A stretch of 64,000 nt of DNA from a virus (IMGVR_UViG_3300020406_000005:10633-74632), one strand, 5' to 3'. Counted from the first letter of the stretch, positions 6,453 to 9,192 are shown. Notes: generated from the letters alone by a model not told the origin. Numbers and translations are program-made.

Positions 6453-6680
6453 TTATGCTCCGCAACAATCTTCATACCATGTTTGACCATAGTGGTATGT
6501 TGGCCCTGTGTCGCCCTGCCAAAGTATTGATTTGCCACCAAGACAGGGGCCATGTATTGACTGGTTATAGCAACCAGGATCTTGATGCATCTTGACTAAA
6601 ACTCCAACTTGCTTAGTACCGTCTTCTCTTTTTCTATAAAGAGTCATACCAAGTTTAAAAGGTCCGCTTTCTTTAATCAT
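6453..6680 (-). CDS. small hypothetical protein
   Basis: FKLGMTL...VGVLV; ATGA coupling. Confidence 0.6.
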   Translation of the reverse strand: MIKESGPFKLGMTLYRKREDGTKQVGVLVKMHQDPGCYNQSIHGPCLGGKSILWQGDTGPTYHYGQTWYEDCCGA

Positions 6681-6877
6681 TTTATTACCTCAATAGTATT
6701 TGGTTTCTGAGCCATGAGATCTCCGTTCTGCCAAAAAACGAAGAACATATATGGTGTTTGTTCTATAACAATACCACATTTTCTAACATTTGTCAAGTCT
6801 TCCACTGATGGATGTGTGCAGAATTTATTATATACTTCTTCAACCTCTGTCCACTTTACAATATCACCGACTTTCAC
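6677..6877 (-). CDS. cassette mini-gene (MKVGDIV family)
   Basis: GTG start inside junction repeat; ends IEVIK. Confidence 0.75.
   Translation of the reverse strand: MKVGDIVKWTEVEEVYNKFCTHPSVEDLTNVRKCGIVIEQTPYMFFVFWQNGDLMAQKPNTIEVIK
6768..6796 (-). promoter_or_regulatory. sigma70-like promoter inside a cassette ORF
   Basis: TTGACA-17 nt-TATTGT with TG extension. Confidence 0.45.
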
Positions 6878-7064
6878 TGATTACCTCCGCTTGTGATTCC
6901 CATAGTGGACCTATCAAAGTGGGATGCGTTGGAGAGTACGTGCCCCACAAGACTTTGAACAATCTCATGCGAACGGGAGATGACGGCGGGCGAGGAAGTT
7001 CTACCAAGACAACACCAGTTCTTTCCATCCCCCAATTCTCTTTTACCAAGTCACCGACTTTCAT
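6864..7064 (-). CDS. cassette mini-gene (SH3/KOW-like)
   Basis: MKVGDLV...EVISESR. Confidence 0.75.
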   Translation of the reverse strand: MKVGDLVKENWGMERTGVVLVELPRPPSSPVRMRLFKVLWGTYSPTHPTLIGPLWESQAEVISESR

Positions 7065-7381
7065 GGTATCATATCCTTTCCAACTCCTATTCCTGCTCTA
7101 ACCATAAGCAACATCAAGGTTGAGCCAAGCGACATTGCAACGGCGGACACAGCACAAAGCTTAAGACGCACCTTTATGTCTTTTCGGTCTATAAAAAACA
7201 ACACTCCAGGCAGATTTAAGAAGGGCAAAGCCATTCCTAAAAATGCCTGAAGCACAATCCAGTCGTGAACAATAGCATAGCTATACCAATTAGCCCAGAA
7301 GTCGGTTATGAGAGCAAGAACGAACACGGTCACATACATATGTTCGTTCATCCAGTCCCAAATTTTGTCACCGACATTCAC
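7061..7381 (-). CDS. cassette-borne membrane protein (~3 TM)
   Basis: Starts in junction (MNVGDKI) followed by three hydrophobic segments. Confidence 0.75.
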   Translation of the reverse strand: MNVGDKIWDWMNEHMYVTVFVLALITDFWANWYSYAIVHDWIVLQAFLGMALPFLNLPGVLFFIDRKDIKVRLKLCAVSAVAMSLGSTLMLLMVRAGIGVGKDMIP

Positions 7382-7571
7382 TGACTACCTCCAGAATCCT
7401 TGTTTCGACGGGTGCAGGGTAGTCGTGTAGCCTAGCCCAAATTTTATCGTTTGGATCGTGGGCAGTATCCCAGAAAAAGACCGATTGGCTAACCGCTTTG
7501 ACAATAAATAAAGATTTTGGGGCGCTGTTAAATATTGAACAATTAAATTTTACTAAATCACCGGCTTTCAT
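7368..7571 (-). CDS. cassette mini-gene
   Basis: MKAGDLV...LEVVSECR. Confidence 0.75.
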   Translation of the reverse strand: MKAGDLVKFNCSIFNSAPKSLFIVKAVSQSVFFWDTAHDPNDKIWARLHDYPAPVETRILEVVSECR

Positions 7572-7761
7572 TGATAACCTCCAGGTTTCGTTCTTCGTGC
7601 CATAGTACGCTGGTGTGTGTGGTGTTCCACTTTACACATATATTTCTGTCTTCCTTAAACCTAAGAGAGCTTACCTCTAAAACTAGTCCAACATAGTCAT
7701 TATACACGCGGTCAGATATAAACTCACTCTTCTTATATCTGACCAAGTCACCAATCTTCAT
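7558..7761 (-). CDS. cassette mini-gene
   Basis: MKIGDLV...LEVINESR. Confidence 0.75.
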   Translation of the reverse strand: MKIGDLVRYKKSEFISDRVYNDYVGLVLEVSSLRFKEDRNICVKWNTTHTSVLWHEERNLEVINESR

Positions 7762-7936
7762 TGCTTAGGTTCTCCAGCATATTCGTTTGTGTCCACGCAA
7801 ACGCGTTGTCTTTCCAGTTTAACTTCTCCCATTTTACCCTGACCCTGAGTGGACTTATGACCTCTGTGATGATTCCATATCCATACTGTTCTGGATGACA
7901 TAGCGGGTTCATTCTTACCAGATCACCGACTTTCAT
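7748..7936 (-). CDS. cassette mini-gene
   Basis: MKVGDLV...LENLSNEDW. Confidence 0.75.
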   Translation of the reverse strand: MKVGDLVRMNPLCHPEQYGYGIITEVISPLRVRVKWEKLNWKDNAFAWTQTNMLENLSNEDW

Positions 7937-8141
7937 TTATTAACTCCAATGTTTCAATATCTCGAACAACTTTGATTGCCCCTCTTTCACTCTGCCTGAC
8001 AATATCCACAACAGGATGCACATCGCCATACATCACGCCAAGCTTATGGTTGTCTCGTGGTGTTGATTTTCTGATTTTAGATACAACCACACCAAGTCTG
8101 CCACCAGCCCAATCTTCTCTCACCAAGTCACCGACTTTCAC
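7923..8141 (-). CDS. cassette mini-gene
   Basis: MKVGDLV...LELINESR. Confidence 0.75.
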   Translation of the reverse strand: MKVGDLVREDWAGGRLGVVVSKIRKSTPRDNHKLGVMYGDVHPVVDIVRQSERGAIKVVRDIETLELINESR

Positions 8142-8298
8142 TGACTAACTCCAAATTCTTCTTTGCTGCTGGAATCTTACGACCGTCATCGCAAAACCTG
8201 ATGTTCAAGTGATGATGGCTTGGCTCTTCTACTATTATCGCCAGCCTGGTGTCGCGTTGGTTAAGCCACTTGCGTCTTACCAAGTCACCGACTTTCAC
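8128..8298 (-). CDS. cassette mini-gene (56 aa; start corrected to GTG 8298)
   Basis: GTG within junction after GAGG; MKVGDLV...LELVSESR. Confidence 0.75.
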   Translation of the reverse strand: MKVGDLVRRKWLNQRDTRLAIIVEEPSHHHLNIRFCDDGRKIPAAKKNLELVSESR

Positions 8299-8452
8299 TG
8301 ATAACCTCATAATCACTCATTCTTTCCCAAAAGACACTGCCCTCTTTATCAAAAATCAAAATATGCGGGACAATAGCGCGGTGATATTTGATCTTGAGGA
8401 CAATTCCTGACCAGTCTGACTTCCTGTTGTTTACCAAGTCACCGACCTTCAC
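8285..8452 (-). CDS. cassette mini-gene (55 aa; start corrected to GTG 8452)
   Basis: MKVGDLV...YEVISESR. Confidence 0.75.
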   Translation of the reverse strand: MKVGDLVNNRKSDWSGIVLKIKYHRAIVPHILIFDKEGSVFWERMSDYEVISESR

Positions 8453-8627
8453 TGATAACCTCCAAGGCTTTGTAAGACCATAATCTTTTACCGTGAGCCG
8501 TGACGACGTGGACGTCTGGGTTTGAGAATGGGCACCTCTCGTAACTTGGGCAGCTGCCATTGTAGCCAACACCTGTCACAATACCTGTATGCCCTTGTCC
8601 ATTTTTCACTAGATCACCGACTTTCAC
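8439..8627 (-). CDS. cassette mini-gene (62 aa; start corrected to GTG 8627)
   Basis: MKVGDLV...LEVISEGR. Confidence 0.75.
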   Translation of the reverse strand: MKVGDLVKNGQGHTGIVTGVGYNGSCPSYERCPFSNPDVHVVTAHGKRLWSYKALEVISEGR

Positions 8628-8811
8628 TGATAACCTCAAACTCACTTGGCTTGTGCAATTGTGGACTATATCCAGGGTACAAAATTTCTACCAGTGGGCC
8701 AGTCATTAGAAGCCCTGCTGCTTGCTTTGGACCTAGACAAAGAGCAACTGTACCTTGCTGATACGGTTCAATACGACCCCAACGCTTTATTACTAAGTCA
8801 CCGGACTTCAT
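8614..8811 (-). CDS. cassette mini-gene
   Basis: MKSGDLV...FEVISESR. Confidence 0.75.
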   Translation of the reverse strand: MKSGDLVIKRWGRIEPYQQGTVALCLGPKQAAGLLMTGPLVEILYPGYSPQLHKPSEFEVISESR

Positions 8812-8980
8812 TTAATAGCTCCAACTCGCAATCGTCAAACCAAAGGCGTGCTGCAATTCTAGGCCAGCCATCGTTCCACAAAATATAGTTTCTAGTGATG
8901 AACTGAAACTTCTCTTGTTCTTTGATTATCCCGATCATGTCGGGATCACGGATATATCGAACTAAGTCACCGACTTTCAT
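8798..8980 (-). CDS. cassette mini-gene
   Basis: MKVGDLV...LELLNEVR. Confidence 0.75.
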   Translation of the reverse strand: MKVGDLVRYIRDPDMIGIIKEQEKFQFITRNYILWNDGWPRIAARLWFDDCELELLNEVR

Positions 8981-9192
8981 GATCTAGAACCTTTCGCATA
9001 AACCCATGCGGTGCGACGTATAGGATAAATATAGTCAATGTGAGATTCAAACTGTCTGCCAGTCTCTTGACAAATCATCTTTGCCCACTCTGGGTTGGTA
9101 TTTCGAGTATTAGAAAAACCCAGAAACATGCATGGTGGGCTGAAGCCATAACCTGCACCGTAATTTACACGATATAAATTGCCAATCTTCAT
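8977..9192 (-). CDS. small SH3-like protein
   Basis: MKIGNLY; ATGA coupling. Confidence 0.65.
   Translation of the reverse strand: MKIGNLYRVNYGAGYGFSPPCMFLGFSNTRNTNPEWAKMICQETGRQFESHIDYIYPIRRTAWVYAKGSRS

Follow-up and report, generated by a model that had tools for sequence, protein, structure and literature searches.

The stretch of DNA analysed here, a viral sequence of 64,000 nucleotides (nt) (IMGVR_UViG_3300020406_000005:10633-74632; hereafter the window), carries on its minus strand, at 6677-8980, a chain of 12 consecutive overlapping genes, 11 of which are paralogues and one an unrelated membrane-protein gene, joined by a short repeated junction that is read in two frames. We found that, in related phages, whole genes of this array have been gained, lost, replaced, and reordered, with breakpoints inside a 14-nt core of the junction, and that unrelated genes have been joined to the same core. 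General recombination or slippage at this expression adaptor probably shuffles the gene cassettes, in arrays that contain no integrase. The original prediction for the window had described about 12 consecutive mini open reading frames (ORFs) with dissimilar middles and a common junction, and this description holds. The 11 family genes encode proteins of 55-72 amino acids (aa) with the N-terminus MK[VSIA]GD[LI]V, and they end in E[SGC]R in 8 of 11 cases, mostly as ...LEVISESR; the exceptional C-termini are EVR (8798-8980), EDW (7748-7936), and EVIK (6677-6877), the last of which lacks SESR because no family gene follows downstream. Paralogues in the window are only 26-37% identical, even with the shared termini included; their middles can barely be aligned, and each member falls in a separate sequence cluster when clustered at 40% identity.

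Ten of the 12 junctions are out-of-frame overlaps of exactly 14 nt with the consensus GTGAAAGTCGGTGA, and the remaining two, at 7061-7064 and 8977-8980, are ATGA overlaps, as had been proposed. The claim that the ten 14-nt overlaps are identical was borne out for their length, which is always 14 nt, but not for their sequence: four copies read the consensus, and the remaining copies differ from it at 1-3 bases. A GGAGGT-like Shine-Dalgarno sequence at -12 to -7 precedes each of the ten cores and lies within the L-E-V codons of the upstream gene. The upstream frame reads (V/L)-(I/V)-S-E-S-R-stop and the downstream frame M-K-V-G-D, and hence the upstream SESR-stop, the Shine-Dalgarno sequence GGAGGT, and the downstream MKVGD are all carried by the same bases, in agreement with the dual coding described in the original prediction. 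All cassette periods equal 1 mod 3, so that successive genes rotate through the three reading frames. When the 74.6-kb record was searched with a 15-mer allowing up to 2 mismatches, 10 matches were obtained on the minus strand and 0 on the other, and a reversed control pattern gave 0 and 1 matches on the two strands. The repetition of the junction is not due to chance; a repeat search of the window likewise returned a family of 12 copies.

Rearrangement of the array was examined in metagenome assemblies, from which all comparative evidence comes; comparisons with public runs used their assembled contigs. Three relatives (L009, L010, and L011), found via a flanking 225-aa protein, were compared with the window (W). 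Between the common flanking genes, W contains 12 cassettes, L009 about 19, L010 6, and L011 about 5. With reciprocal-best orthologues at least 60% identical in the middle, gene order showed inversions in 8 of the 12 locus pairs and affected 38 of the 129 orthologue pairs, in line with the earlier proposal that whole genes are deleted, duplicated, or reordered. Two other loci, L028 and L066, have 10 clusters in common; 24 of the 45 pairs that these form are inverted, and none of the 10 adjacencies survives. Among cassette pairs at least 80% identical in DNA and drawn from different loci, the upstream neighbour differs in 49 of 57 and the downstream neighbour in 66 of 72. The family gene at 8439-8627, for example, has 6 homologues at 77-83% identity, every one with different neighbours, and distant homologues of the adjacent gene at 8614-8811 occur in other arrays, where the neighbours differ as well.

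The boundaries of the exchanged units were mapped by position-by-position identity in 22 and 34 independent clusters. Upstream, identity specific to the cassette does not rise above the junction background until about +8 to +15 of a gene's own start; downstream, it runs through the next gene's Shine-Dalgarno sequence, spacer, and start (positions -13, -11, -5, -4, -2, and 0) and is gone by +14. Both boundaries thus lie inside the 14-nt core, and the prediction that aligned relatives would break at the junction was confirmed. The mobile unit begins at codon 5 of a gene and ends at codon 4 of the following one, and a gene's ribosome-binding site, start codon, and 'MKVG' travel with its upstream neighbour. 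Individual loci behave in the same way: the likeness of the gene at 6864-7064 to its counterparts in L125 and L129 starts at the start codon and core, and in L125 it stops at the next core. Contigs from near-identical strains in runs X4 and X5 diverge from the window at 8144 and 8154, at a junction. All 12 junctions are spanned, with 0-1 mismatches, by contigs from an independent run, X3, so an assembly accident in a single data set does not explain the gene order of the window. In run X8, many candidate 'joints' were considered as deletion variants and rejected, since their sides, 20-34 nt at 85% likeness, represent other cassettes with the same junction. A separate 1066-nt seawater contig of run X8 matches 6866-7063 and 6121-6876 with about 107 extra letters between the two matches, at the junction 6866-6876; the extra letters may be a short additional unit or an alignment gap in a related strain.

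In addition to family genes, the arrays hold non-paralogous cargo joined to the core. Five kinds of array cargo matched Pfam, namely ClpP (PF00574), a PF04463 protein, GIY-YIG, SWIM, and DUF3310, and further cargo includes a UvdE-like endonuclease and other small ORFs. Cargo genes end in x-E-S-R-stop inside the start of a family gene. In W, L009, L011, and L129, the UvdE-like gene (11101-12033 in the window) is found upstream, outside the array; in L010 (8588-9523) it is inside, with its tail remodelled to ...HASR-stop and overlapping an MQVGD start. The non-family cargo in the window's own chain is a hydrophobic 106-aa protein gene at 7061-7381 (minus strand), attached through a 14-nt overlap at 7368-7381 and an ATGA overlap at 7061-7064; its first five codons (MNVGD) are the junction core. 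This membrane protein has no Pfam match and 150 relatives in metagenome contigs. The array-resident copies begin with MKVG[DE]..W.WMNEH, have the 14-nt overlap, and occur with varied neighbours on both sides, whereas more distant copies begin with MTAANKLW, MLMSPSKIW, or MFEKSW and have no junction. In L129, a copy 84% nt-identical to that of the window has different neighbours on both sides. The membrane-protein gene is thus a foreign gene that was fused in frame to the core and then moved as a cassette. Two side observations concern cargo. Very basic ORFs of 42-70 aa (K/R-rich, ...HKG(Q/T)...R-stop) that end in the core recur in the arrays of L012, L063, L049, and L045. Small GIY-YIG nuclease genes were found as cargo at L051:8635-8946 and also in L081, L059, and L114; they could make local breaks, and nothing ties GIY-YIG to the core.

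The gene family is widespread in uncultured phages. At least 120 stretches of IMG/VR contigs contain an exact 18-mer of the junction, many of the contigs being 185-200 kb long, and 123 loci yielded 951 unique genes with the N-terminal motif, mostly of 50-70 aa, whose middles fall into 534 clusters at 40% identity. Of the consecutive family pairs, 494 share an overlap of exactly 14 nt and 44 one of 4 nt. Near-consensus cores number 6-18 in each of four relatives, of which two are complete, and lie in 2-3 clusters and nearly all on one strand; a control pattern gave 0 matches in the same genomes. A single member, the gene at 8439-8627, has 121 homologues in a collection of 5.8 billion proteins, all of them unnamed or hypothetical and none with a Pfam domain. 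Among 50,697 phage records, no cultured relative was found by array DNA match or by tblastn with one member, and the 49-nt junction gave chance-level matches only. A search of the literature for this family or architecture turned up only papers on the promoter-early stem-loop (PeSL) elements discussed below.

It had been asked whether the junction DNA is conserved beyond the needs of coding and ribosome binding, and with one exception the answer was negative. Within the overlap, each third codon position of one frame is the first position of the other, and so dual coding together with the Shine-Dalgarno sequence explains the conserved block. Sites that are free in both frames are nearly unconstrained (0.20 bit at -5, 0.21 bit at +20, and 0.64 bit at +17), and junction conservation is almost fully explained by the two frames plus the ribosome-binding site. 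Genes without a family gene after them end in ...EVIK or similar, and array-heading genes keep MKVGDLV; because the tail varies where no family gene follows and the N-terminus stays, the S-E-S-R tail is a by-product of the overlap. The exception is site +8, which is doubly synonymous (GTC/CGG or GTA/AGG; e.g., window positions 8290, 8133, and 6869). C occupies this site in 82% of overlapping junctions, whereas codon usage in the long genes of the window predicts A by about 4.6 to 1. In family genes without an overlapping upstream frame, GTC is kept in 64-67% and GGT in 78%, compared with genome codon usages of 20% for GTC, 27% for GGT, and 5% for CGG. The C at +8 could possibly reflect avoidance of AGGTGA, a strong Shine-Dalgarno-like sequence inside the gene start; selection for homology is the other candidate cause.

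Junction identity is 0.766 within genomes and 0.756 between genomes, and concerted evolution within genomes was therefore rejected as negligible. Six junctions that were folded gave inconsistent z-scores, from +1.2 to -2.6, with no consistent fold. In the consensus junction, -9 to -2 (Shine-Dalgarno sequence and spacer) can pair with +9 to +16 (codons G-D-L), for example at window 8282-8307; the pairing potential is 75-97% per position, with the exception of -5:+12. Such a hairpin would place the upstream stop in its 3' arm and would suit termination-dependent coupling. As a structure that sequesters the Shine-Dalgarno sequence it was rejected, as there was no covariation and pairing was no better than in column-resampled controls, and it is kept as a lead only.

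We propose that an uncultured marine myovirus of about 190 kb has in this array a hyperplastic polycistronic region, probably an early one, that is filled by a very large family of approximately 60-aa proteins predicted to form SH3-like barrels. In the adaptor, the codons of the last strand (L-E-V) double as the Shine-Dalgarno sequence of the next gene, whose start and first four codons (M-K-V-G) are read out of frame as S-E-S-R, and the TGA within GGTGA(C/T) terminates the upstream gene; this geometry is expected to couple translation along the chain. As the adaptor is the only DNA common to unrelated cassettes, homology-driven events should fall in the 14-nt core. Such events may take the form of UvsX-type recombination or of slippage during replication at short direct repeats, and may occur inside a single genome or between genomes that infect together; slippage between short direct repeats is known in T4. 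They would delete, duplicate, replace, or reorder whole genes and regenerate the ribosome-binding site, start, and stop each time. Rare illegitimate joins at the core would fuse unrelated genes in frame, and the fused genes would then move alike. Even rare events, in a huge population and over evolutionary time, would be enough for the observed pattern.

The absence of a visible integrase, already remarked in the original prediction, extends beyond the window: tyrosine and serine recombinases (PF00589 and PF00239) are absent in the window's record and in four relatives, two of which are 100% complete, and control genomes were positive. The suggested phage RecA-type recombinase has a counterpart in a UvsX-like gene at 39729-40862 on the minus strand (phrog_97, E 2.6e-58), which may act at the junction. 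With no recombinase and no fold or covariation at the junctions, the integron analogy holds for the outcome only; an integron-like mechanism, with a site-specific recombinase and a consistent junction fold, was not supported.

Several points weigh against shuffling by general recombination or slippage. Between window junctions, exact in-register homology covers a median of 10.5 nt and at most 25 nt, which is marginal for RecA/UvsX-type exchange; junction homology being so short, events must be rare or use slippage. Site +8 is conserved past coding needs, which a pure by-product model does not predict. The window contains no recent duplicate, its paralogues being at most 37% identical, and cluster-level orthology can be confounded by paralogy. 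Finally, a repeat of about 25 nt could conceivably give rise to mis-joins in metagenome assemblies, a concern countered by run X3, which reproduces the window order, and by some adjacencies that recur in independent samples. The last three points are the ground for reading the array as an old tandem family that is inherited vertically with differential loss, its apparent reordering being paralogue confusion and chimeric assembly. Collinearity of 4 of the 12 strict locus pairs, and an adjacency of ENWGMER followed by (K/R)WT that is conserved in W, L011, and L129, speak for it too, but we regard this account as quite improbable. Cassettes 80-90% identical lie beside unrelated neighbours in the proportions given above, identity drops to background within the core, and unrelated genes have been joined in frame to that core; the UvdE-like gene is inside the array in one relative and outside it in four loci, and independent contigs reproduce the window order. 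Even loss would have to run from junction to junction to keep 494 exact 14-nt overlaps.

The bias at +8 can also be viewed from the other side, with the core being kept at the nucleotide level as a recombination signal by second-order selection for evolvability, and with phages drawing combinatorially on a population-wide pool of cassettes, possibly by way of excised single-unit circles like the mini-circles of PeSLs. Under that view, the prevalence of C at +8 and the persistence of GTC and GGT without an overlapping upstream frame would be expected, the exchange points coincide with the core, and the likeness of junctions between and within genomes would indicate that the pool is population-wide; moreover, in one seawater run, contigs matching only 30-40-nt junction footprints reached about 150x depth, versus about 5x for the flanks. 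However, free sites outside the core (-5, +17, and +20) are unconstrained, the C at +8 is explicable by translation if AGGTGA is avoided, and the homology is very short, and we therefore consider a selected signal unlikely. A dedicated site-specific system, an integron analogue in which an unrecognised recombinase or a homing-type nuclease recognises the core and drives the excision and insertion of cassettes, would account for breakpoints limited to one short conserved sequence, and candidate nucleases exist in the GIY-YIG genes among the array cargo of relatives and in an HNH endonuclease-like gene of the window (1026-2363). We judge it highly improbable, given the recombinase searches and the inconsistent folding without covariation described above; the GIY-YIG cargo is sporadic and absent from the window's array, and nothing connects the HNH gene to the core. 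The reading that we favour is still one of general recombination or slippage at the adaptor. A broader formulation, in which the 14-nt core is a selected, integrase-free exchange site through which marine phages of this group reassort a population-wide pool of more than 500 mini-gene types plus captured foreign genes, with single-unit circles as possible intermediates, is tentative and on balance doubtful. If it is true, the array would be the equivalent of integrons and PeSLs at the level of translation, and phages would have in it a general means of domesticating new genes in frame.

PeSL cassettes have been described in the hyperplastic regions of T4-type phages (Arbiol et al. 2010, PMC2839356; Comeau et al. 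2014, PMC4122927). A PeSL consists of an intergenic sigma-70-like early promoter and a terminator stem-loop, and exchange between nearby copies yields mini-circles (PMC2839356, PMC4122927). PeSL-mediated modular shuffling is the closest known mechanism: in both systems the plastic regions of large myoviruses contain small genes, most of them ORFans, with a short repeated expression element between them, and recombination between copies accounts for insertions, deletions, and replacements in related phages with no dedicated recombinase. Here, too, the cores flank small variable genes, and the differences between relatives break at the repeat. The array repeat differs in that it acts in translation and coding, comprising a Shine-Dalgarno sequence, a start, a stop, and parts of two proteins in two frames but no promoter or terminator, and in that it joins one huge paralogous family in a single operon-like chain. 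Integrons, with their IntI, attI, attC, and Pc, resemble the array in that cassette content and order vary between relatives. Integron cassettes are promoterless single genes in one orientation behind a common promoter, and the array, with all its genes on one strand and a sigma-70-like consensus match upstream, may be arranged likewise. In contrast to integrons, the array has no integrase, and its junction is coding and its cassettes overlap, whereas integron cassettes are separated by recombination sites; as for attC-like hairpins, no consistent fold was seen in six junctions, no dedicated inverted-repeat search having been run. Tandem families such as the poxvirus 'gene accordions' change copy number by unequal crossing-over, and their copies are near-identical and recombine anywhere. 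The array shares with them a head-to-tail family and a copy number changed by recombination between repeated units, but its units are unrelated save for about 30 nt, and distinct genes are shuffled, non-family cargo included. Because the units are alike only over those 30 nt, exchange is confined to the junction. Recent tandem duplication of the accordion type was rejected in view of the low paralogue identity and the separate clusters of the members.

These arrays show, in about a hundred uncultured marine phage genomes and down to single nucleotides, a large repertoire of small proteins that can be reshuffled without a dedicated recombinase. One short sequence would serve four roles, as ribosome-binding site, start, stop, and crossover point. 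The PeSL idea, which concerns transcription signals, is thereby carried over to a translation adaptor with dual coding, and it becomes clear why unrelated genes come to share their first five codons or their last four residues. The junction also offers a defined site, addressable by polymerase chain reaction, for measuring recombination and gene capture in natural virus populations. In addition, at least several hundred predicted SH3-like variants, abundant, conserved, and under purifying selection, become candidate host-takeover factors.

A structural basis for the shared termini was suggested by an AlphaFold2 model of the protein encoded at 8442-8627, built from a 123-sequence alignment. The model has a predicted local distance difference test score of 85.7 and forms a small five-strand beta-barrel with predicted strands at residues 6-8, 14-21, 38-43, 46-51, and 56-59, in which MKVGDLV makes the first strand and LEVI the last. 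For this one modelled member, then, the junction-encoded termini are predicted to be both end strands of an SH3-like barrel, in line with what had been proposed. Foldseek returned SH3-like barrels at template-modelling scores of 0.60-0.70 with E of at least 0.013, comprising the eS4 KOW domain, a Lon specificity factor, and CAP-Gly, and in the same range MutS2 KOW, Mfd, and the UvrD/PcrA Tudor domain; against BFVD, the model matched small unnamed phage proteins. KOW, Tudor, and other SH3-like barrels (NusG/Spt5, uL24, eS4, UvrD/PcrA Tudor, Mfd RID, and CAP-Gly) are alike in the predicted five strands, and the family's N-terminal K-x-G-D-x-V resembles the KOW motif, but the family differs in having no significant sequence match to them. 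With ten members, Pfam gave nothing at cut-off (best E 0.09, to unrelated models) and PHROGs nothing usable, and membership of the KOW domain PF00467 was not supported by any significant profile match. A PDB profile search returned the KOW domains of Spt5, NusG, and uL24 only at E 0.1-0.3, and all E-values, at 0.015 or above, were non-significant.

Close orthologues showed a median ratio of nonsynonymous to synonymous substitution rates (dN/dS) of 0.13, with 58 of 59 clusters below 1. This low ratio means that each cassette encodes a conserved, presumably functional protein and is not hypermutating, and diversifying selection on the cassette middles was rejected at short range on the same value. 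Our guess, from the modelled fold, is that the proteins bind host or phage macromolecules, and they might constitute the library of small effectors that the original prediction called them.

The record is rated 41% complete by CheckV, and the window codes for a DNA polymerase, a ribonucleotide reductase, a DnaB-like helicase, a tail sheath protein, GroEL, and a thymidine kinase. All chain genes are on one strand. In a consensus scan, only two sigma-70-like matches were found near the chain on the minus strand, at 9641-9613 and 6796-6768; the former (9613-9641, TTGACA-17-TAATAT) lies upstream of the chain and is a putative promoter. The same scan found no promoter-like hexamer pair at any of the 12 junctions and no terminator-like site on the minus strand within 6677-9600. 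Given the upstream promoter match and no site at the junctions, the chain is probably one transcript. A perfect TTGACA-17-TATAAT occurs at 12063-12091 on the minus strand, just upstream of the UvdE-like gene, with further matches at 10-11 of 12 positions at 10403-10375 and 9641-9613; all three look like early promoters.

The family genes of the chain are described below in order of transcription, all on the minus strand, with the ten 14-nt cores as their overlaps. The first, at 8798-8980 (60 aa, MKVGDLVRYIRD...ELLNEVR), starts in the ATGA overlap with the gene at 8977-9192. It is followed by a 65-aa gene at 8614-8811 (MKSGDLVIKRWG...EVISESR; core 1, 8798-8811) and by a gene of 62 aa that starts from GTG at 8627 and spans 8439-8627 (MKVGDLVKNGQGHTG...EVISEGR; core 2, 8614-8627). 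The fourth to sixth members lie at 8285-8452 (55 aa; core 3, 8439-8452), 8128-8298 (56 aa; core 4, 8285-8298), and 7923-8141 (72 aa; core 5, 8128-8141). The seventh, at 7748-7936, encodes 62 aa with the variant tail ...LSNEDW (core 6, 7923-7936), and two genes of 67 aa each follow at 7558-7761 (core 7, 7748-7761) and 7368-7571 (core 8, 7558-7571). Core 9 (7368-7381) belongs to the membrane-protein gene, beyond which lie the tenth family gene, at 6864-7064 (66 aa, MKVGDLVKENWGMERTG...EVISESR), and the last of the chain, at 6677-6877 (66 aa, tail ...NTIEVIK; core 10, 6864-6877). An outlying family member without an overlap junction is located at 6195-6449 on the same strand (84 aa, MKVGDLVTLSAYGKK...), and its position is kept in relatives. 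At the other end of the chain, a 92-aa gene at 9189-9467 ends in ...NLVESRMRKQ-stop in an ATGA overlap with the gene at 8977-9192 (MKIGNLYRV), and this end resembles a decayed junction in which the TGA was lost.

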